From a virus, in IMG/VR virus record IMGVR_UViG_3300045988_162372: a stretch of 64,000 bases of DNA, one strand, 5' to 3'. The notes under the pieces are model-generated. The model saw only the letters and a program-made list of their open reading frames with translations. It was not told the origin of the DNA and searched no databases. Made by a program: the position numbers and the translations under genes. This document shows, piece by piece, positions 12,941 through 59,960 of the stretch (the stretch's first letter is position 1; each line of letters begins with the position of its first letter).

Positions 12941-12980
12941 GATACTTTTACTATAAATTAAACAATTTTACATTAATTTG

Positions 12981-13067
12981 TAGTCAAGGTGGGAGTCGAA
13001 CCCACACAAGTATTTCTACTTCCAGATCCTAAGTCTGGTGCGTCTCAACCAATTGCGCCACTTGACC
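12981..13067 (-). tRNA. tRNA-Leu, anticodon UAG (class II, long variable arm)
   Basis: The minus strand reads GGTCAAG TG GCGCAATTGGTTGAGACGC A CCAGA CTTAGGA TCTGG AAGTAGAAATACTTGT GTGGG TTCGACT CCCAC CTTGACT A. This gives a 7-bp acceptor stem (one G-U), anticodon loop CU-UAG-GA, a 5-bp T stem with a TTCGA loop, and discriminator A. CCA is not encoded. Confidence 0.9.
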
Positions 13068-28616: not shown

Positions 28617-28640
28617 TGTTTAATCTTCCTCAACTTTTAT

Positions 28641-28656
28641 GAAATAAATTATATCA
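28641..28656 (-). promoter_or_regulatory. TGATAT-ATTTAT box (candidate late promoter) upstream of 25320..28616
   Basis: The minus strand reads TGATATAATTTATTTCATAAAAG, starting 40 nt before the ATG. Related boxes lie 41-44 nt before three other tail genes. Confidence 0.4.
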
Positions 28657-28767
28657 CCTTTCTCCATAAGTATCTGCAACATTACTTTTTCATATATACG
28701 CAAAAATTGCTTATCAGATTATATGAATATAGTTAAAATCAAAGTGTCATTTCAATTTTTTTCCTCA

Positions 28768-29090
28768 CCAGATATTAATGTTAACAACTAGTCGTAGACA
28801 TTAATATTGTTTTATAATAATATTGTTAACAATAATATAGAATTATTATATTTTATTTTTTATTTTTATATAATAATGTTAACGATATTATTGTCTACAT
28901 TATTGTATTATTGTTTACTCTAATATTGTTAACAATAATAAACTATATATCTATACAATATTATTGTTTATATTATTATATTATACTAGTATACATTAAT
29001 GATGTAAAACAATAATATACTATACTAGTATATAATATTAATGTTTAACAATAATAATGTTAACAACTAGTTGTATACAATAATATCTGG
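28768..29090. repeat. 323-bp quasi-palindromic noncoding element, dense in short repeats, bounded by 25-nt imperfect inverted repeats
   Basis: The ends (28768..28792 and 29066..29090) are inverted repeats matching at 22 of 25 positions. Internal repeats: a 16-bp direct repeat (28777..28792, 29056..29071), a 20-bp direct repeat TAATATTGTTAACAATAATA (28818..28837, 28921..28940), two TATACTAGTATA palindromes (28982..28993, 29021..29032), five GTTAAC cores, and at least 12 AACAATAAT/ATTATTGTT-type motifs. No ORF on either strand. Confidence 0.85.
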
Positions 29091-29135
29091 AAAAAGCAAA
29101 ATATCAAAGTGCAAAACTGAACACTTGAAAATAAG

Positions 29136-29205
29136 GCGTTCTAAGAGGTTTTCTTATTCAAAGCGATAACTTGTATCCTTTTGAAGAAATAATCGCTCAG
29201 AACGC
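29136..29205 (-). terminator. long structured hairpin just after the tape-measure stop codon
   Basis: Outer arms GCGTTCTAAG (29136..29145) / CTCAGAACGC (29196..29205) pair at 9 of 10 positions. Inner AGCGAT/ATCGCT and TTCAAA/TTTGAA pairings are also possible. The minus strand continues CTTATTTTC. This segment is noticeably more GC-rich than its surroundings. Confidence 0.5.
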
Positions 29206-29229
29206 ACGAAAACAGTCAAATTTCGTATT

Positions 29230-32200
29230 CTACTTCCTTAGATAGTCATATTGTGTAACACTCCTACCTCCATTGATGGATTTTCCGACTTCATCAGAAA
29301 TCATTTGAGATAATTGCCGTATCAGCATCGGATTCTTATTTAATAATTCCATAATGTCAATACTTTGCCCATTCGCTTCAAGCCTTACACTACCAGATAA
29401 TTCAACTTTTACTGGTTTTATTATAATTTCAGTAGGCATTGCATTTACACCCATTTGGCTTGCAAGCTCATTTGCTGATACCGTCATAGGATTTCCATTG
29501 CCAAAAGCCATTGCATCATCTGAAGAAACAAACTGCGATTTTCCTATCGGTTCTGACGGAACAACACTATTATTGGATAAGTTGTTATATATTTCATCAA
29601 TACGTCCAAATACTCCATTAAACAATGTATCAAAAGGCCCACCAGTCTTTGCAAAGATGGCATTATCTTGAGGGTTTGTCTTCGCAACGCCATCATTGAT
29701 AGATTTAACAGTTTTTGCTGATACCGTCATAGGATTTCCATTGCCAAAAGCCATTGCATCATTGACTGATGACATTGAAAAATTACTATCAATAGGTTTA
29801 ATACTATTTGCAGCAACAGTCATTGGTTTGCCATCGCCTGACATAAAAGCATCATTTGCTCTTTGTGTGGGATATGCCTTTACTGATGATAATGACTTAT
29901 CAGCTTCATAGGTTGCTTGATTTTCTTTGAATTGAACATAAGAAGGTGAGCTACCATTAGGGTTATTTGGGTTGTACCCAGTTTTTTGATAAATGTCATT
30001 CAAAACGCTAACAATTGCTTCTCCATATGTTTGGATATTCTTAACCACATCATCGGCTGATGCTTGATATGCTTGTGCATTTTGGGCGAGTGAATTTTCA
30101 TATACTTGTGTGGCTTTATTTACATTTTCTGTAATTTTACTAACATATTCATCAAGTTTGGTATTAAAATCTTCCTGTTCTTTTGCAAGCCTTTCATTCA
30201 TATTAGCAGAAAATTGTCCACTTTCTACTAATTTATTTGAAAGTTCACTCAAATTACCTTCTGTAGCACCTCTAAACAGTTCTGTAAATGATACAAGTTT
30301 AGCCATACCTTTTTCCATAGTGTCTTCATATGTCTCTCCTTGTACCATACCTACATTTTGCTCATTCACATCCTTGACATTCATCTTTCGACCATCAATG
30401 GTATTCACCATCCATTCACCGTTTTCATAATAAGCCTTATTAACAAGTGCCTGCTGTTGGTCTCCTGTTAAATTTTGATTTACACCTGTTACCTTATTTT
30501 TCTTGATATTATAAGTTGCTTGCGCCCTTACATCTTCAATAGATTGCCCAGATGCTTCAGCAAAAGCTCTCATTAATTCTTGGTCAACTTGATTAAAATC
30601 GACATTACCTGTCTTCTTATTGAAACGTCCCATGCCTTTTGTCATATTATTGAAACGCTTCATAAGAGATTCTGGGTCGTTAAATGCTTCATAATACATA
30701 GCAAGAGGATCCGCATACATAGCATATCTTCCGCCTAACACCTGTATTTTAGCAGCTTTCGTTATGATGTTTTCTAAACCTCCACTTTGTATGTTATCAA
30801 GAATTTGAGGAACGTTAGCCATATTGAATCTGACATTTTGCGCCCATTTAGCCATATCAGCCAATCCCTTAACACCGTCCTTGAAAGTAAATTTATTAGC
30901 CATTTTCATGTTATTGACCATATCTTTCATATATTTTCTCCCATCAAGACCCATTTTGTTAAGTTTTTTAGCTATATCGGAAAACATATCGACAGTTCCG
31001 CTAACACCTATATTAAACAGTTCTGCATTGTTAGCTAATTCAGCAGCGGTTTGAATATCTCCACCGAGATATTTTTTAGAAAATGCAGCTTGTTTTGTCA
31101 AATCACTTTCATTCATCATCATATTTCTACCACCAGGAGCATAACTTTGTATAAGTTGCATTACATCTTGCGCAGTTAAACCGTATGTTCTTGCAAGTTT
31201 AGTGGTTATCTGATTCATATAAGACGAAAACGTTTCTAACTGTCGTCTATCTGTAATACCCTTACCAATTCCTGAATTAAAAGAAATGTCTTGAAAATTC
31301 ATAGACCATTGCTCTACTGTTTGAGCCATTTTTTGATACATCTTTTCAATTTGATTGGCTGTATCTAATACGCTTTTCTTTATCTCAGTAACATCCTCAG
31401 TTTGTTTAGTCAATGCGTCAAGTCTTTTTTGCTCAAAATTCTGTGTAATTTTTGCAAAATTTTCATAGTTAGCTTGTTGAGCATTTAAATTATTGGTTGC
31501 ATTTGTAATATCTTTTATAAGGGTGGTTTCTCCTTTTGTAATAGCAGCATCTGTAATTCCTCCAAAATCTAACCCTACGAGTCCTGTTACTGAATTCACC
31601 ATTCCAGCTCCTGTTACAGCACCCAATTTACCATCGGTTGCCATATTTTTGAAACCACCAGTCGTATTTTCTCCATATTTCTCGGCAAGTTTAGCCTGAT
31701 TTCCGAAACTTTGTACATTGTCAGCACTTGTACTACCTCCCACAGCTCTATTAATACTACTAGTCCACGGATTTTCCGCTGTTAGTCTAAGATCTTCAAC
31801 GGCAAGTTTTGCATCTTCACTTTCGGCATTTAACAATGTTTGTCTTTGTTGATATGCCCTACTTTCTTGTCCTCGTTCATATTGTCCTTGTACAAATTTC
31901 TGACGTTCAGTTTCGATTTTTTGTGTTTTGGCAATATCTTCATTCAATTTTTTTACTGCTGTATCAATATCAGTTTGAGCAGACAACCTTTCCCATGCAG
32001 CATTATTAATATCACCTATCACACTATTAATTTTTGCAGATGTATTAGCGATTGCCGTTTGATTAGCAATTTCTTGTTTTCCTCTTTCTTCAACAATCAT
32101 CTTATTATATTCAGACATTTGTCTTTCAAAAGAAGTATTTAATTTTTCTACAGTTCCTTCTGCTTCAACATTTGATAGTTCAATATTACGTTTTGTATAT

Positions 32201-42533: not shown

Positions 42534-43052
42534 TTATTTCCAAGTAACCTCTTTTTCGTTACCATTTTTATCATAATATGAAAACCAAAATTCTTTGGGT
42601 TCAAGAACAATAAGTTTATCCAATACATCTTTTGTGTATTTCTCAGCAACACCGTGTTTTACATAAGCAATAGTTGCATGGGGATGATATTCCTTATAGT
42701 CGGAATGAGTTGGATATTTGTCAGTAATAGCCTTATAAGAATTAAACAAAGGTATCGAACTTGCATCACACTTCAATACTTCAAAATCAGGATTATCAAA
42801 TGAAGATATGTTAGTAAGAAATGTTTGGTATTTATCCAAAGGCTCAAGCATATCTTTAAGCTTATTCAAATCGACATCATTATCAAGACAAGGAACAAGT
42901 GTAACATGAGTATCTGTTTCTATACCGTAACCGCTTCTACTGTCATCTCCATAATACAAATCATCTTCAGAAAGTTGTTCTTGTATGTCCTTAATAATAT
43001 CAGGCGTATTAAACCTAATCATTAAAAAAGCGTATTTCTTTTTATCTGCCAT
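42534..43052 (-). CDS. 2H phosphoesterase (LigT / Acb1-like)
   Basis: Two H-x-T motifs in the usual contexts: DTHVTLVPC (His49) and YHPHATIAYV (His125). 172 aa. Confidence 0.6.
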   Translation of the reverse strand: MADKKKYAFLMIRFNTPDIIKDIQEQLSEDDLYYGDDSRSGYGIETDTHVTLVPCLDNDVDLNKLKDMLEPLDKYQTFLTNISSFDNPDFEVLKCDASSIPLFNSYKAITDKYPTHSDYKEYHPHATIAYVKHGVAEKYTKDVLDKLIVLEPKEFWFSYYDKNGNEKEVTWK

Positions 43053-44531: not shown

Positions 44532-45551
44532 TTATTTATTTACACTTTCTTGCGTGTTTTTAGAAATAACAACACAATCAACAAATTCAGGACAAAAATG
44601 TTCAATATCTGTTACATTCGTATAACTCATTGCGGAACGAAGATAGCTTTCCATATTTTCAACCCATGTGTTTAAATGTGTTGTAATGGGTAAATACTTA
44701 GTAATGCCTTCTGCGGTCTTTGTTTTCTTTCCGTTTATTACAATCTGTCCTTGCTTTGAAGCCATACCATAAATTTCCTTACATTTAACACCATCAACCT
44801 TAATTGTTTTAGCACAACTTTCATGTAATGACGCAAACAGGCTTCCAATCATTACATAATCAGCTCCCAATGCCAATGCTTTGATTACATCAGAATAATT
44901 ACGAATACCACCATCTGCAATGATATAAGGAAGTTTAGTACCCATAGAATCAGACAATAGTTGCAGACTCTGTTTAATTTCAAATACATCATTAATCAAT
45001 GAAGCCATAGGGTAATGGATAGACGTATTTGACGAAGTAATGCAGCATCCGCCACTACCAATTCCTACTCTAATATACTGTACACCAGCATTATAAGCAA
45101 CCTTATATGTTTCGGGATTTGCAATATTGCCAACCATAACAATGATATTATCTCCGTGAATTTTTTTAGCTTTCATAACATAATCATACATTAAATTCAT
45201 ATGCCCGTTGGCGATATCAATTAATGCCTTTGCAGGAGAATTAAACTTACCATATTCATTACAGAAACATTCATAGAATTCGTGAAGAGAATATGCAGAC
45301 CATCCACCAGAACAAGAATTGCCGTATCTCACGGTTATGTCAATGTTTCTCGGAAGAATTGCATTTATCTTGTTACTCTCAAACAAATGATAATTAAATT
45401 CATCTACAACACTGCTCATAGGCGCGGTAAATATAGGCAATTTACCATTTTCTTTATAAACATTGCATTCATCTCTATGTTCGATATATGAAACCTTTGC
45501 AGGTTTTACCATGATATCATTGTATGAATAAAGTGTCTTATCTAATAGCAT
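44532..45551 (-). CDS. GMP reductase / IMP dehydrogenase-family enzyme (no CBS insert)
   Basis: GIGSGGCCITS (catalytic Cys loop, compare GIGPGSICTT) and IADGGIRNYSDVIKALALGADYVMIGSLFA (compare IADGGI..sGDi.KAlaaGA..VM.GsllA). The 339-aa length fits GuaC-type proteins. Confidence 0.75.
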   Translation of the reverse strand: MLLDKTLYSYNDIMVKPAKVSYIEHRDECNVYKENGKLPIFTAPMSSVVDEFNYHLFESNKINAILPRNIDITVRYGNSCSGGWSAYSLHEFYECFCNEYGKFNSPAKALIDIANGHMNLMYDYVMKAKKIHGDNIIVMVGNIANPETYKVAYNAGVQYIRVGIGSGGCCITSSNTSIHYPMASLINDVFEIKQSLQLLSDSMGTKLPYIIADGGIRNYSDVIKALALGADYVMIGSLFASLHESCAKTIKVDGVKCKEIYGMASKQGQIVINGKKTKTAEGITKYLPITTHLNTWVENMESYLRSAMSYTNVTDIEHFCPEFVDCVVISKNTQESVNK

Positions 45552-45574: not shown

Positions 45575-46138
45575 CTATTTAACACCAGTACTGCCAAACC
45601 CATCAAGATTACGTGATTCGTTACTTTCAACTTCTTCTACTTGTTGCATATTCACTAATTCTTTACAATAAACAGGCATCAACACAGCTTGTGCAATTCT
45701 ATCCCCTGACGTGATTACAATGTCTTTCTTTGAAAGATTTACAGCAATAATACAAACCTCATTGACATAATTTGAATCTACAGTACCAGGAGTATTGAGT
45801 ACAGACAAACCGTGCTTCAATGCCATTCCGCTCCTTGGTCTTACTTGTATTTCACAATTTTCGGGAATGTTAAAATACAAGCCAGTATGAATAAGTTTTC
45901 TTTCAAGCGATTTTAATGTAATAGTGTATTTTCCTTCTTTTTTATCCAACTTTGCATTTTCGTCGCTTTCAGTAATATAAGCCCGTAAATCAAAACCACT
46001 ATCACCGCTATGTGCGTATTCTGGATTAGGATTATCAGACTTATTGACAAATTGCAAAATTTGAACGTCTGGCATATAGTTGTCAGGTTTATCATATATG
46101 CCACCTCTCATAAACATAGGTATCTTTCCAAATGTCAT
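45575..46138 (-). CDS. dut: dUTP diphosphatase (trimeric dUTPase)
   Basis: Canonical motifs are present: GDSGFDLRA, RPRSGMALKHG, GTVDSNYVNEV, GDRIAQAVL, and C-terminal RNLDGFGSTG. Confidence 0.9.
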   Translation of the reverse strand: MTFGKIPMFMRGGIYDKPDNYMPDVQILQFVNKSDNPNPEYAHSGDSGFDLRAYITESDENAKLDKKEGKYTITLKSLERKLIHTGLYFNIPENCEIQVRPRSGMALKHGLSVLNTPGTVDSNYVNEVCIIAVNLSKKDIVITSGDRIAQAVLMPVYCKELVNMQQVEEVESNESRNLDGFGSTGVK

Positions 46139-48995: not shown

Positions 48996-49013
48996 TTTAA
49001 GTTTAATTAGCTA

Positions 49014-49036
49014 TTTATTTTTATAAATAAATATCA
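49014..49036 (-). promoter_or_regulatory. TGATATTTAT box (candidate late promoter) upstream of the tail tube gene
   Basis: The minus strand reads TGATATTTATTTATAAAAATAAA, starting 41 nt before the ATG. Confidence 0.4.
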
Positions 49037-49115
49037 GAATTATTACTTTTGCAGCGGAATTACAATATTAAATATATAAATAAATGGATAGAAAAGAAAA
49101 TTGTCATTAAATTAA

Positions 49116-49523
49116 AAAGTATATGGTGACAATATTGATACATCAATAGAGAATTTTAGTAAGTTCCTGCCGATACCACAAGAGGCTGTAGTTATCTTAA
49201 ATGTGGGCATAACTTATCAAAAAAAAAAAACAGAAGACGATATTATTTCTTTTAACGAAGATAAACTACATATTAATAATATTATTCAACATACTAAAGA
49301 CATAATTCCTCCTTTTAAAATTGATATATGCCTTCCAGATTATAGTACAGCGATTGAATATAATGGATTAATATGGCATTCTGAAAATTTAGAAAAGAAA
49401 TACTATCATCTAAAGAAAAATCGAAGAATACCAAAAGTAATGGAGATTAAATGTCTCCATTACTTGTTTGTTTATTATCTTTACTTTCAAATGCCTTATC
49501 TACTATATTCCATACCTTTTTAA
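49116..49523 (+). pseudogene. decayed copy of the homing-endonuclease-like gene (nuclease core only)
   Basis: The frame is open from 49116 with no ATG (the track starts at GTG 49203). FKIDICLPDYSTAIEYNGLIWHSE...YYHLKKN...IKCLHY aligns with EIDILIPEKNIGIEYDGLIWHSE...NYHIGKT...IQLIHI of 49963..51417. DNA identity across the IEY(D/N)GLIWHSE core is about 90% by eye. The zinc-ribbon repeats and C-terminal domain are missing. The 3' end overlaps the minus-strand ORF 49447..49821. Confidence 0.55.
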
Positions 49524-49821
49524 GTAGCTGATACTGTTCTGATGTAGGATTATCAGCAAGTTTTGCAATAGCTTGTAAAGCTAACTGACGTATTTTATTT
49601 ATAGTATCAGTTACATCAACTTCGCTTCCACTCTCTTCTGGGGCGGTTTCAACTTCTTCCTCTTCTTCATAACCATCATTAAATTCATCAGGTTTTTCAA
49701 AGTCCTCTTCATTAACATCAGAAAAAATCATATTCTCAACAGTTAATTTAGGTTTACTAAGCAATTGTTTCATTTCGCTGATAAGTTGCTTACTATCTAT
49801 ATTTTGTTTCTTCTTTTCCAT
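49447..49821 (-). CDS. hypothetical acidic protein
   Basis: 124-aa ORF with an acidic tract (EEEEEVETAPEESGSEVD). ATATTTATAATATATAAA lies 26-43 nt upstream. Confidence 0.45.
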   Translation of the reverse strand: MEKKKQNIDSKQLISEMKQLLSKPKLTVENMIFSDVNEEDFEKPDEFNDGYEEEEEVETAPEESGSEVDVTDTINKIRQLALQAIAKLADNPTSEQYQLLKKVWNIVDKAFESKDNKQTSNGDI

Positions 49822-49896
49822 ATTTGATAAAGTAGATTTATATATTATAAATATATACTAACATAATTAAATATAGTAACATTTAACATTTAAAAC

Positions 49897-49927
49897 TTTG
49901 TTATTTATATATAATAATGTATATTTG
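49897..49927 (+). promoter_or_regulatory. Bacteroidota sigmaA-type promoter for the endonuclease-like gene 49963..51417
   Basis: TTTG is at 49897..49900 and TATATTTG at 49920..49927, 19 nt apart, 35 nt before the ATG. Confidence 0.65.
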
Positions 49928-49962
49928 CACAGCAAAACTTAGCAATACAACGAAGTTATAAA

Positions 49963-51417
49963 ATGAACGGTAAAAACCAATTTCCAAAAGTAACTACTGA
50001 AAGTATTATACAAAGATTTATAAATAAACGTGGAGATGAATATGATTATTCTCACGTAATATATAAAAATATGCATACAAAGGTTGCTATTGGTTGTAAA
50101 ATACATGGTATATTCTATCAAACCCCTCATAATCACTTAAAAGGACAAGGATGCCCAGAATGTAGTAAAAAGAAAGTTGCAGATGGACGTAGAATGTCAA
50201 AAGAAGAATTTATCAGAAGAGCAAAAGAGAAACATGGTAACAAATATGATTATTCAAAGGTTGAATATATAAACAATAGAACAAAGGTGTGTATTATTTG
50301 TCCTATTCATGGTGAATTTTGGCAGACACCTGATGAGCATTTAAGATATGGTTGTAAAAAATGTTCTGTAGAATATATTGCTCGAAAAAGAATAGAAAAT
50401 TCTGCTAAAACATTTGAACAAAGAGCAGGTGAAATACATAATTTCAAATATATTTATGAAAAAGATACTTATAAAGGAAATGATAATTTAATAACTGCAT
50501 ATTGTCCTATTCATGGTAAATTTACACAAATTGCGCATTATCATTTACAAGGTTATGGTTGCCCTAAGTGTGGAATAAGAAAATCTGAAAATGAGGATAA
50601 AATATGTGATTTTATTACTTCTTTTGGAATTAAGGCTGAAAAACACAATAGAACAATAATCAAACCTAATGAAATTGATATTCTTATACCAGAAAAGAAT
50701 ATAGGGATTGAATATGATGGCTTAATATGGCATTCTGAGAAATATAAAGTAGATTCTAATTATCATATTGGCAAAACTAATAAATGTAAAGAAAATAATA
50801 TACAATTAATTCATATATTTGAAGATGAATGGTTAGAAAAGGAAAATATAGTTAAATCAAATATATTAAATATATTAGAAGTATATGAAAATAAAATATT
50901 ATCCGATAATTGTGTAGTTAAAAACGTTTCACCTCAACAAGCTAAATATTTTCTAAATAACAACTATATTAAGGGAGAATGTCGAGCTAAAATACATTTA
51001 GGTTTGTATTATAATAATGAATTAATTTCTTTAATGTCATTTTCTAAATTAAAAATATTAAAAGGTGATGTATGGAAATTAGTTTGTTATTGTAATAAAA
51101 TTAATACAAGTATTTTAAATGGGGCAAATAAATTACTTCAATATTTTATAAAAAAAGAATTGCCATCTAAAATTATTACTTATGTTGATAAACGATGGAG
51201 TAATGGAAAAGAATACGTCGAAATGGGATTTACTTATACAAATGACACTAAGCCTGATTATTTCTATGTTATAAATCAACATAGAATAAGTCGTTTTAAA
51301 TATAAAAAGAATGATTTGACACAAAAAGAAATCTATAGAATATATGATTGTGGTTCAATGTGTTTTGAAATGAATTTAAACAAAAAAAAGAGGACTAAAT
51401 ATATAAGTCCTCTTTAA
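49963..51417 (+). CDS. free-standing homing-endonuclease-like protein: three zinc-ribbon repeats, a Vsr/DUF559-type nuclease core and a C-terminal domain
   Basis: Three ~65-aa repeats of (G)xKYDYSKVxYxNxxTKVCIICPIHGEFWQTPxxHLxGxGCPKC are followed by IDILIPEKNIGIEYDGLIWHSEKY and ...IHIFEDEW. It is encoded on the opposite strand between the sheath and tube genes. Confidence 0.65.
   Translation: MNGKNQFPKVTTESIIQRFINKRGDEYDYSHVIYKNMHTKVAIGCKIHGIFYQTPHNHLKGQGCPECSKKKVADGRRMSKEEFIRRAKEKHGNKYDYSKVEYINNRTKVCIICPIHGEFWQTPDEHLRYGCKKCSVEYIARKRIENSAKTFEQRAGEIHNFKYIYEKDTYKGNDNLITAYCPIHGKFTQIAHYHLQGYGCPKCGIRKSENEDKICDFITSFGIKAEKHNRTIIKPNEIDILIPEKNIGIEYDGLIWHSEKYKVDSNYHIGKTNKCKENNIQLIHIFEDEWLEKENIVKSNILNILEVYENKILSDNCVVKNVSPQQAKYFLNNNYIKGECRAKIHLGLYYNNELISLMSFSKLKILKGDVWKLVCYCNKINTSILNGANKLLQYFIKKELPSKIITYVDKRWSNGKEYVEMGFTYTNDTKPDYFYVINQHRISRFKYKKNDLTQKEIYRIYDCGSMCFEMNLNKKKRTKYISPL
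51382..51415. terminator. bidirectional hairpin terminator shared by the endonuclease-like gene and the sheath gene
   Basis: Perfect 10-bp arms AAAGAGGACT (51387..51396) / AGTCCTCTTT (51406..51415). The plus strand continues AATTTTTATT. On the minus strand the hairpin lies 20 nt after the sheath stop and is followed by a U-run. The hairpin lies inside the last codons (KRTKYISPL) of the plus-strand gene. Confidence 0.65.
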
Positions 51418-54660: not shown

Positions 54661-54684
54661 CTATAATCAGATTTTATCGTATTA

Positions 54685-54704
54685 TTAGTTATTTATAAAT
54701 ATCA
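54685..54704 (-). promoter_or_regulatory. TGATATTTAT box (candidate late promoter) upstream of the sheath gene
   Basis: The minus strand reads TGATATTTATAAATAACTAA, starting 44 nt before the ATG. Confidence 0.4.
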
Positions 54705-54743
54705 TTAAAAATACCAAAGTGAGATATTTATAATATAGAATAG

Positions 54744-56828: not shown

Positions 56829-56842
56829 GATTAATAACTTTT

Positions 56843-56854
56843 TATATAAATAGT
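56843..56854 (-). promoter_or_regulatory. ACTATTTATATA box (candidate phage-specific promoter) upstream of 56307..56828
   Basis: The plus-strand 12-mer TATATAAATAGT is identical to the copies at 16792 and 63103. It ends 14 nt before the ATG and abuts the -33 element of the divergent host-type promoter. Confidence 0.4.
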
Positions 56855-56885
56855 TTTGCTTTTACTATACAAAATAGTATATTTG
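56855..56885 (+). promoter_or_regulatory. Bacteroidota sigmaA-type promoter for the SNF2 helicase gene
   Basis: TTTG is at 56855..56858 and TATATTTG at 56878..56885, 19 nt apart, 21 nt before the ATG. Confidence 0.7.
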
Positions 56886-56906
56886 CAAAAATAATATTTT
56901 ATATAA

Positions 56907-58823: not shown

Positions 58824-59960
58824 ATGAATACTGAAGAGTTTATAAGAAGAGCGAAAATAATCCACGGTGATAAATATGATTATTCAAAAACAAAATATGT
58901 AAATACCCAAACAAAGGTTTGCATTATTTGTCCAATTCACGGGGAATTCTGGCAGAGATATAGTGATCATTTATATGGAAGAGGGTGCAAAAAATGTATG
59001 GCGGAAAAATTAAGGAATGACAATTCGTTATCCCAAGAAGAGTTTATAAGAAAAGCAAGAGAGGTACATGGTGATAAGTATGATTATTCGAAAGTAATTT
59101 ATAATGGTAATAAAAAGAAAATATGCATTATTTGCCCCATACACGGAGAGTTTTGGCAAATAGCAGGTAATCATTTACGTGGCTATGGATGCCAAAAATG
59201 TGTCAGAAGTATATATGATACTGAAAGTTTTACATATAAAGCAAACATAACACATCATAATAAATATGATTATTCAAAGGTAAAATACGAAGAATATGAT
59301 AAGCCAGTGTGTATTATTTGTCATAAAAAAGATGAAAATGGAATCGAACACGGAGAATTTTGGCAAACACCACATGGACACACACAAGGTAATGGATGCC
59401 CAAAATGTGCGATTGAAGGAATACAACTGCAACACAGAATGACAACCCAAGAATTTATTAAAAAAGCAGAAGAAGTACACGGTGATAAGTATGATTATTC
59501 GAAAGTCGAATATGTAAATTGTAATACACCGATATGTATTATTTGCCCCATACACGGAGAGTTTTGGCAAAAACCTCACAATCATTTAACAGGTAGTGGA
59601 TGTATACTATGTAACGAGAGTAGGTGTGAGACAAAAGTTAGAAAAATATTATTATCTAATGATATTCATTTTGAGTATCAAAAAAGATTTAATTGGTTAG
59701 GAAAACAATCATTGGATTTCTATTTGCCTGATTATAATATTGCAATTGAATGTCAAGGTGTACAACACTTTAAACCTGTTAGTCATTTTGGAGGAATACT
59801 GGCATTTCACAAACAATATAAAAAAGACAAAATAAAATGGTCTTTATGTGAAGAACATAATATAAAAATTTTATATTATACCATAAATAAAGAAATATTA
59901 AATTCTTCAGTTATAAGAAATGAAAATGATTTATTGAAAGAAATATGGAAGAGAAAATAA
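58824..59960 (+). CDS. free-standing homing-endonuclease-like protein: four zinc-ribbon repeats plus a Vsr/DUF559-type nuclease core
   Basis: Four repeats of HGDKYDYSKVxYxxxxxxICIICPIHGEFWQxxxxHLxGxGCxKC are followed by LDFYLPDYNIAIECQGVQHF. It is a paralog of 49963..51417. Confidence 0.65.
   Translation: MNTEEFIRRAKIIHGDKYDYSKTKYVNTQTKVCIICPIHGEFWQRYSDHLYGRGCKKCMAEKLRNDNSLSQEEFIRKAREVHGDKYDYSKVIYNGNKKKICIICPIHGEFWQIAGNHLRGYGCQKCVRSIYDTESFTYKANITHHNKYDYSKVKYEEYDKPVCIICHKKDENGIEHGEFWQTPHGHTQGNGCPKCAIEGIQLQHRMTTQEFIKKAEEVHGDKYDYSKVEYVNCNTPICIICPIHGEFWQKPHNHLTGSGCILCNESRCETKVRKILLSNDIHFEYQKRFNWLGKQSLDFYLPDYNIAIECQGVQHFKPVSHFGGILAFHKQYKKDKIKWSLCEEHNIKILYYTINKEILNSSVIRNENDLLKEIWKRK

Follow-up and report, generated by a model that had tools for sequence, protein, structure and literature searches.

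A dyad-symmetric site array among the tail genes of a T4-like gut jumbo phage: a candidate origin of replication

Lambda-type and plasmid iteron origins, archaeal origins flanked by origin recognition boxes (ORBs), and the oriS-type origins of herpesviruses all place repeated or palindromic initiator sites beside an A/T-rich unwinding region, and in these systems the specificity shifts while the layout stays. In baculoviruses, the A/T-rich arrays of imperfect palindromes called hr have a restriction-site core, act in cis both as enhancers and as origins, and are present in multiple dispersed copies. Bacteriophage T4 has an origin, oriE, that lies among baseplate genes. Here we describe a 323-bp quasi-palindromic element, tentatively read as a replication origin, within a 64,000-nt stretch of phage DNA (IMG/VR record IMGVR_UViG_3300045988_162372). 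This whole stretch is called the window, or W when it is compared with its relatives, whose sequences carry L-numbers (L002, L136, etc.).

The T4 origins, including the iteron-bearing oriE, provide precedents for such a reading (PMC3016281), and oriE, near repEA/repEB, appears to be the nearest by analogy. Like the element, it consists of short repeats clustered in the genome of a T4-type myovirus, is syntenic in close relatives, and lies outside the main replication gene cluster (PMC3016281). In contrast, the element has half-sites in both orientations, a global dyad, and two large end modules, and it has no sequence in common with T4. In addition, the oriE iterons have not been linked to origin firing and are functionally unresolved even in T4 (PMC3016281). 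T4 oriF and oriG and the primary origin of T7, in which a promoter is followed by an A/T-rich unwinding element, may resemble the element in another way, since a promoter-like box is directed here into the easiest-melting DNA of the region, and the phage has a T4-like set of replication and recombination genes. However, the box at the element agrees with the Bacteroidales -7 sequence at 7 of 8 positions and has no -33 motif, and those origins have no arrays of palindromic sites. Compared with iteron, ORB-flanked, and oriS-type origins, the element has no adjacent cognate initiator gene and no DnaA boxes, and its symmetric unit of 250-320 bp is much larger. It is like hr in its type of array, but it is single-copy, belongs to another host domain, and has no homology to hr.

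A site array in a noncoding gap

The window is part of a human-gut contig, and the identical sequence is also found within a contig of 312,870 bp. Its source is an uncultured, T4-like jumbo phage of ~313 kb with Bacteroidota-type promoters. The element occupies much of a 613-bp gap (28617-29229) between two minus-strand genes, here called gene A (upstream) and gene B (downstream) (Table 1). This is the sole gap of that size in the window that is free of open reading frames (ORFs), and no ORF of at least 40 aa is present in it. A hidden ORF arising by stop-codon reassignment was rejected, as the gene strand then has no more than 65 open codons, whichever single stop is reassigned. An earlier note on this DNA had called the gap the largest truly noncoding one, with others of about 180 bp or less apart from a decayed endonuclease region; as a correction, gaps of 219-455 bp do occur, each with a small ORF or the tRNA.

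Recomputation reproduced the anatomy of the core reported in the earlier note. The 25-nt terminal inverted repeats match at 22 of 25 positions, and the mirror symmetry continues inward at 39 of 50. A 16-bp direct repeat, AATGTTAACAACTAGT, starts at 28777 and 29056, and both the 20-bp direct repeat TAATATTGTTAACAATAATA and the 12-bp palindrome TATACTAGTATA are present twice, as reported. The five GTTAAC sites (28780, 28825, 28878, 28928, and 29059) make up 5 of the 9 in the window. Among the short motifs found a dozen or more times in both orientations, the dominant one is ACAATAAT(A)/(T)ATTATTGT; ACAATAAT has nine exact occurrences, and 18 sites are within one mismatch of ACAATAATA. The 323 bp contain 8 copies of ACAATAATA and 6 of TGTTAACAA, compared with 2 and 0, respectively, in the other 63 kb of the window. 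The ends are indeed inverted as well as direct repeats of each other, with one correction to the earlier description: each end is itself a 36-bp near-palindrome, which explains how both relationships can hold.

The density of these repeats was compared with 1000 dinucleotide-preserving shuffles of the element. Positions in repeated 8-mers number 180 (69 +/- 11 in the shuffles), those in repeated 12-mers 47 (3.3 +/- 3.8), and matches of the element to its own reverse complement 188 (139 +/- 6). None of the 1000 shuffles attained any of these values or the element's level of repeated 10-mers. Thus, the repeat density and mirror symmetry are far beyond chance for this A/T composition, which the earlier note had named as a possible trivial cause, while short exact palindromes counted alone are not exceptional relative to the shuffles. 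The element also supplies 9 of the 12 local inverted-repeat pairs in the window.

The tetranucleotide CTAG is strongly avoided by this phage, with 15 occurrences in 64 kb against an estimate of ~190 expected from base composition, which suggests pressure from a CTAG-specific restriction system. Four of the five ACTAGT sequences in the window are nevertheless inside the element, and at the L002 and L003 loci every ACTAGT falls in the element.

Conservation and replacement among relatives

Relatives of gene B were gathered from IMG/VR, from JGI/ENA metagenomes, and from a collection of 15 billion proteins. A W-type element is present at the same site in L002, L136, and L183, whose gene B identities to W are 90%, 75%, and 87%, respectively. 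In all six pairs of W-type sequences, the core is 88-94% identical, compared with 57-83% at the four-fold degenerate sites of gene B. On the gene A side, ~95 nt are invariant in W, L002, and L136, and the block CAAGTGTTCAGTTTTGCACTTTGATATTTTG is likewise unchanged among these three and differs at one position in L183. Gene A itself is only 41% identical between W and L002 and is truncated in L136. The earlier note's description of a noncoding array of putative protein-binding sites acting in cis therefore holds up: the array differs from chance, is there in one copy, occupies a syntenic position, and is better conserved than synonymous sites.

Sister lineages carry other sequences at this site. 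In L184 (gene B 79% identical to W), two identical 37-bp modules lie 192 bp apart around A/T-only DNA, and arms of 126 nt are 75% complementary. L003 (58%) has 34-nt inverted repeats (94% identical) bounding 259 bp rich in TATACTAGTATA, and L188 (57%) has 36-nt inverted repeats (92%) around 224 bp of 17% G+C. L186 (61%) has a mini-element of ~90 bp, the contigs of L004 and L191 (both 55%) break inside an A/T stretch rich in ACTAGT/GTATAC, and no array was seen in L187 (58%). The common plan is a pair of palindromic or inverted modules of 34-37 bp, 190-280 bp apart, around A/T-rich DNA, usually with CTAG inside the modules. Similarity of the element is out of step with that of gene B, as seen in L136 and L184. 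In relatives with a gene B identity of 48% or less, the element is absent; genes A and B are 15-165 bp apart with ordinary sequence between them, or there is no gene A. A layout that stays constant while its sequence is exchanged is the pattern expected if the specificities of an initiator and an origin co-evolve. Of all the features of the locus, this exchange of sequence within a fixed layout is the most interesting.

The earlier note had also proposed a miniature inverted-repeat transposable element (MITE)-like insertion and a BLASTN copy check to distinguish it from a cis-acting site. Such a relic, or a functionless junction left by neutral recombination, would be in line with the terminal inverted repeats, the 12-bp direct repeats CACTTTGAT(A/T)TT that flank them, the strong mosaicism of the adjoining gene A, and the poor correspondence between element and gene B similarity. 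However, only a single syntenic locus was found. The window has no second copy, as a short-word blastn of the gap against it returns A/T tracts alone. In IMG/VR, the terminal pattern CCAGATATTAWTGTWWACAAC and the module core TACAACTAGTTGTWAACA are each confined to a single 216-kb relative, which has two copies of each at the homologous locus. (A scan of IMG/VR with a 17-mer palindrome, which gave more than 119 unrelated chance hits, was informative at the L002 locus alone.) Among 185,579 GTDB genomes, the terminal pattern has 3 single-end matches against an estimated ~2 expected by chance, with no paired element. The 12-bp repeats are 9 and 21 bp outside the inverted-repeat ends and, at that distance, are not a target-site duplication. 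With no further copies and no abutting duplication, a MITE is thus not supported. In addition, a core conserved above synonymous sites in every pair, and CTAG sites retained despite their genome-wide avoidance, are not expected of a functionless relic, which we consider very improbable.

A structured RNA is an equally improbable explanation. A long hairpin leader or a non-coding RNA, e.g., an RNase III processing site transcribed from the -7-like box upstream, would account for the strong single-strand DNA fold of the element (z = -6.6), the direction of that conserved box into the element, and 3 compensated pairs in a three-sequence alignment. In the same alignment, which offers few sequences for covariation, more than 10 predicted pairs are broken without compensation. 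An Rfam scan of 27.5-30.5 kb found no family at its gathering score and two sub-threshold chance matches, the better being CRISPR-DR65 (24.5 bits versus 43, E = 0.64). The interior has been exchanged for A/T-only sequence in L184, and the element lies downstream of a terminator-like hairpin. Finally, TATTGTTAACAATA has turned into TATTGACTCAATA in L136, where, as in L183, the long-range pairing partner is lost and the local dyad symmetry is retained. The persistence of local symmetry beyond its long-range partner therefore favors protein sites over a long hairpin.

Bacteroidales invertons provide another comparison, since in the presumed host phylum, which is rich in such switches, inverted repeats bound intergenic segments of 200-300 bp upstream of operons (PMC8748976). 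A recombinase that flips the segment between the terminal inverted repeats would alter how the tail genes downstream are expressed. Four sequence types of this Bacteroidota-associated genome and its relatives do have inverted repeats of 25-36 nt around 190-280 bp, and the assemblies of L004, L182, and L191 break at or inside the element. However, neither strand of the gap has an internal TANNTTTG promoter, with no match to TANNTTTGNA in 28617-29229. Gene-family scans covered the genes called from -7 to +73 kb, i.e., ~80 kb of the 313-kb genome, and no invertase or recombinase family was found there or next to the element. The asymmetric part of the interior has the same order in all four diverged W-type assemblies, with no flipped form, and the modules of L184 are perfect direct repeats. 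Because the interior is itself nearly symmetric, flipping would alter little. The L182 contig stops 21 nt outside the repeat rather than at its inner edge, which indicates loss of coverage in A/T-rich DNA. An inverton is thus a highly unlikely explanation.

The three independent assemblies that stop at or in their own element do so at L004 1-140, the start of L182, and L191 1-87. Coverage loss or graph complexity in palindromic DNA of 9-16% G+C is the likely cause, with structural heterogeneity as the alternative.

Duplex stability, strand composition, and candidate functions

The core has the lowest G+C content of all 323-bp stretches in the window. By nearest-neighbor energies, the element is also the least stable duplex of 200-320 bp in the window, ~4.7 standard deviations from the mean. 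Strand composition changes at the same place. On the coding strand, the A/T skew at four-fold sites is +0.08 left of the element and -0.19 for the co-oriented genes to its right, where there is an excess of plus-strand A at four-fold sites in genes of either orientation. A logistic model of -7 to +73 kb, in which a coding-strand term was fitted, places a change point with a flip of sign at 26-32 kb (log-likelihood ratio (LLR) 53). Treating each of the 49 minus-strand genes as one unit puts the best split at the gene B-gene A junction, with an LLR of 50.7 that only 2 of 5000 permutations of gene order attained. Among relatives, genes on the gene B side have a four-fold A/T skew of zero or above throughout the clade with at least 54% gene B identity, including L187; outside this clade the skew is mostly negative, with the L015 lineage as an exception.

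A single-copy, syntenic, constrained dyad array, the easiest-melting DNA of the window, and a switch in strand asymmetry thus coincide, and we tentatively favor an origin of replication, or one of several, of this Bacteroidota phage as the best explanation. Two of the features looked for in an origin are present: the ~18 ACAATAATA-like half-sites and the two 36-bp modules form a cluster of repeated candidate initiator sites far above that of the shuffles, and the 37-bp A/T run, within the least stable duplex and the lowest G+C, is a candidate A/T-rich unwinding element. Of the functions listed in the earlier note, an origin is the one that gains support, from the duplex instability and from the switch in A/T-skew polarity at the gene A-gene B junction. 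Protein binding, melting, and initiation might proceed as follows. A phage- or host-encoded initiator would bind as dimers to both end modules and to the ACAATAAT-type half-sites between them. The nucleoprotein complex would strain the intervening DNA with its 37-bp A/T tract and so open it, perhaps aided, as at T4 oriF/oriG, by transcription that starts at the conserved -7-like box upstream. Loading of the phage's DnaB-type helicase, SSB, and family-B polymerase could then follow.

Several observations weigh against an origin. No initiator family is present among the genes scanned. The 56 kb of genes around the element all run in one direction, with no divergence of transcription at it, and the A/T-rich divergent regions at 49.8 and 56.9 kb would be more conventional places for an origin. 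The -7-like box upstream lacks a -33 TTTG. Raw G/C skew tracks gene orientation with no switch at the element, and neither does G/C skew at four-fold sites switch there. The A/T-skew shift is clade-wide, which makes it a single evolutionary event, and it is also found in L187, where no palindromic array is obvious. Its boundary is a terminator/promoter boundary as well, so expression class or mosaic ancestry could be the cause, and its polarity fits an origin or a terminus alike.

The two divergent regions, 49822-49962 and 56829-56906, are 13-16% G+C and have back-to-back TATATTTGCA promoters and no repeat arrays.

The main rival is a regulatory or insulating array, an option that the earlier note raised as an operator array and that is on balance unlikely. 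A phage DNA-binding protein that coats the element would, like an upstream enhancer, control the gene B promoter and with it ~30 kb of baseplate and fiber genes, or it would insulate two transcription units; the baculovirus hr arrays, in their enhancer role, are a parallel. The position fits: a conserved terminator-like hairpin is on one side of the element and conserved promoter-like sequence on the other, the element itself being ~90-410 bp upstream of the presumed start region of gene B. The earlier note's phrase that the element splits a tail operon is reasonable for the same reason. In the distant relatives that lack the element, genes A and B nearly abut, and gain of the element therefore uncoupled them. 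Furthermore, dimeric regulators typically use palindromic half-sites. However, ~18 sites for one promoter are far beyond the needs of an operator, no other gene in the 64 kb has the motifs enriched upstream of it, and the many other terminator/promoter junctions of the phage fit in 180 bp or less. The A/T-skew switch and the extreme duplex instability would also be left unexplained.

Other kinds of DNA-protein site that occur once per genome are distinctly unlikely. These would be a centromere for maintenance as an episome or in a carrier state, a packaging (pac) site, or a site for resolving multimers, at which the two palindromic modules in direct repeat would serve for crossover. The pac site of P1 typically has clustered six-base palindromes, and the centromere sites of N15 are dispersed in its genome. 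The single locus and the dense array are suited to such a function, and the end modules, as direct repeats with a central CTAG between inverted arms, resemble the core sites of recombinases. However, no ParA/ParB, integrase, or resolvase family match was found among the genes scanned. A centromere-like array is thus present without a partition gene within the ~80 kb, and a pac or cos site without a terminase family there. Thus, the packaging or partition site suggested in the earlier note is not supported by the neighboring genes. The 'solo-module' product expected of excision is in no relative, although L186 has its mini-element alone, and none of the three functions predicts a skew switch. 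As a separate observation with a bearing on the centromere reading, the 124-aa ORF at 49447-49821 (minus strand) has a sub-threshold match (E = 0.008), probably noise, to the C-terminal domain of Alp7A, an actin-like plasmid segregation protein.

As an origin, the element would be of a known kind, an iteron/palindrome array with an unwinding region; what is new is the sequence family, the host group, and the position inside a tail/baseplate module. To our knowledge, no replication origin has been mapped in any uncultured jumbo phage of gut Bacteroidota, although no dedicated literature search was made. A precisely delimited, conserved candidate would make replication control, the timing of host takeover, and engineering testable, the last through origin-based vectors or phage-dependent replicons for Bacteroidales. 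The lineage-specific sequences are natural specificity variants with which the binding protein might be found by co-variation. If the element is regulatory or invertible instead, it would control the ~30 kb of baseplate and fiber genes.

A more speculative extension, which we regard as quite doubtful, is an origin-specificity cassette. A dyad-symmetric origin would have been gained once in the baseplate/tail module of this clade of T4-like gut jumbo phages, and its recognition sequence swapped at least four times (the W, L184, L003, and L188 types) while the layout of two modules and an unwinding spacer was retained. If true, lytic jumbo phages would have an initiator/origin system that resembles incompatibility, and the element might also serve as an hr-like enhancer for the downstream tail genes.

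The gap, its flanking genes, and the source phage

In the orientation of the genes, the gap consists of the gene A stop codon, a hairpin with a U-tract, a conserved block, the 323-bp core, the GAAATGACACTTTGATTTT block, a promoter-like block with a Shine-Dalgarno sequence, and gene B (Table 1). The hairpin is most likely a terminator, given that similar long hairpins are found at other gene ends of the phage, and the sequence of its stem is retained in L184 and L003 as well. The -7-like box that follows, which is directed into the element and fits TANNTTTGY at 7 of 8 positions, is kept in five sequences; L003 has a perfect TATATTTGT upstream of its own element. A scan for sigma-70 promoters and simple terminators was uninformative for a Bacteroidota-type system, with promoter-like hits inflated by A/T richness.

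Table 1. Coordinates of the array, the surrounding gap, and other features of the window
Feature	Position	Strand	Remarks
Core quasi-palindromic element	28768..29090	.	323 bp, 15.8% G+C; ~18 ACAATAATA-like half-sites in both orientations
Gene-A-side near-palindromic module, 36 bp, ATATTATTGTATACAACTAGTTGTTAACATTATTAT	29051..29086	.	Centre ACTAGT 29066-29071; within block invariant in W, L002, L136
Gene-B-side near-palindromic module, 36 bp	28772..28807	.	Centre ACTAGT 28787-28792; 89% direct repeat of gene-A-side module
20-bp repeat TAATATTGTTAACAATAATA, first copy	28818..28837	.	With 14-bp perfect palindrome TATTGTTAACAATA
20-bp repeat TAATATTGTTAACAATAATA, second copy	28921..28940	.	Centre of global dyad
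TATACTAGTATA palindrome 1	28982..28993	.	Contains ACTAGT/CTAG; motif also in L003-type element, strongly avoided elsewhere
TATACTAGTATA palindrome 2	29021..29032	.
Pure A/T tract, 37 bp	28841..28877	.	Longest in window; candidate unwinding core
Gene A, upstream flanking, 1157 aa	29230..32703	-	No function assigned; strongly mosaic between strains
Gene B, downstream flanking, 1098 aa	25320..28616	-	No function assigned; large family, gut and rumen jumbo phages
Terminator-like branched hairpin after gene A	29127..29205	-	Stem GCGTTCTGAG...CTCTTAGAACGC, then U-tract; fold z = -3.3
Conserved block CAAGTGTTCAGTTTTGCACTTTGATATTTTG	29097..29127	-	-7-like box CAGTTTTGC (29111-29119); direct repeat CACTTTGATATT (29100-29111)
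Conserved block GAAATGACACTTTGATTTT, gene-B side	28735..28753	-	Second flanking direct repeat CACTTTGATTTT (28735-28746)
Conserved promoter-like block before gene B	28639..28683	-	TAATGTTGCA -7-like box and TGATATAAT
Bacteroidales-type promoters (TTTG, 19-20 nt, TAT(A/C)TTTGCA), upstream of genes	6155, 11463, 15543, 17469, 24947, 46179	-
Bacteroidales-type promoters, as above	49920, 56878, 63609	+
Auxiliary genes in structural block	42534-43052, 44532-45551, 45575-46138	-

The promoter-like block overlaps a 15-codon upstream ORF-like frame, MEKGDIIYFIKVEED (28620-28667, minus strand), that stops 3 nt ahead of the gene B start. The DNA of this frame is conserved, and its peptide is altered by frameshifts in L136 and L184; because of these frameshifts, the DNA is probably a promoter or leader rather than a coding frame.

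Neither gene A nor gene B has a family, PHROG, Pfam, or PDB sequence match, and comparisons with phages by blastn (both flanking genes) and tblastn (gene B) found none. The tape-measure label that the earlier note gave to a flanking gene is thus unverified, with no search in its favor. Within its 3' part, gene A contains a 49-nt sequence twice as a perfect direct repeat (29471-29519 and 29714-29762, 243 nt apart), with a third copy, 67% identical, at 29807-29855, a pattern that indicates a recent internal domain duplication.

Many intergenic regions of the window contain TAT(A/C)TTTGCA with TTTG 19-20 nt upstream, which matches the Bacteroidales -33/-7 promoter consensus (PMC8748976). Because of this fit, the host probably belongs to the Bacteroidota. 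The structural genes are T4-like (sheath, gp19-like tube, T4_baseplate, and gp25, with a faint gp13 match), and the closest GenBank relatives of the sheath are from T4-type phages, at 25-32% identity. Replication genes in or adjoining the window encode a DnaB-type helicase, a RecA/UvsX-like protein, a 5'-3' exonuclease, an SSB-like protein, NrdD/G, and the family-B polymerase (PolB). The genes surrounding the element are all on the minus strand. When the 20 window proteins without an assignment were searched against PHROGs, an SSB-like match was the only one, with no DNA-binding candidate.

Three candidate similarities at or near the locus were rejected. A similarity of 18 of 19 nt between 29171 and 28400 is at chance level (E = 0.12). 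An ORF between genes A and B in L006, considered as a homing endonuclease, has only a weak ART-like match and is not one, and thus nothing indicates that the junction is a hotspot for mobile elements. When the gap was compared with GenBank phages by blastn, the one match was a low-complexity A/T stretch; it lies in a crAss-like phage, where an A/T-only repeat occupies a divergent intergenic region, and is analogous at most. In that phage (MH552500.1, L174, a Wotdevirus), an A/T-only tract of ~200 bp at 2490-2700 is followed by a TATATTTGCAG promoter; the composition is similar and the sequences are not homologous.

Other features of the window were observed in passing. Motifs like the T4 late promoter, TGATATTTAT...TATAAATA-like, precede the sheath (54661-54743) and tube (48996-49446) genes. 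A tRNA-Leu gene with anticodon TAG (12980-13067, minus strand) is in the 455-bp gap between the 5'-3' exonuclease and RecA-like genes. Two plus-strand ORFs, 49963-51417 and 58824-59960, each have 3-4 copies of a ~204-nt unit and DUF723 matches; they belong to a common repeat family, 8.6 kb apart, and one has a weak REase_MTES_1575 match. The auxiliary genes within the structural block encode a 2'-5' RNA ligase/Acb1-like protein, possibly directed against the cyclic oligonucleotide-based antiphage signaling system (anti-CBASS), an IMPDH/GMP-reductase-like protein, and a dUTPase.

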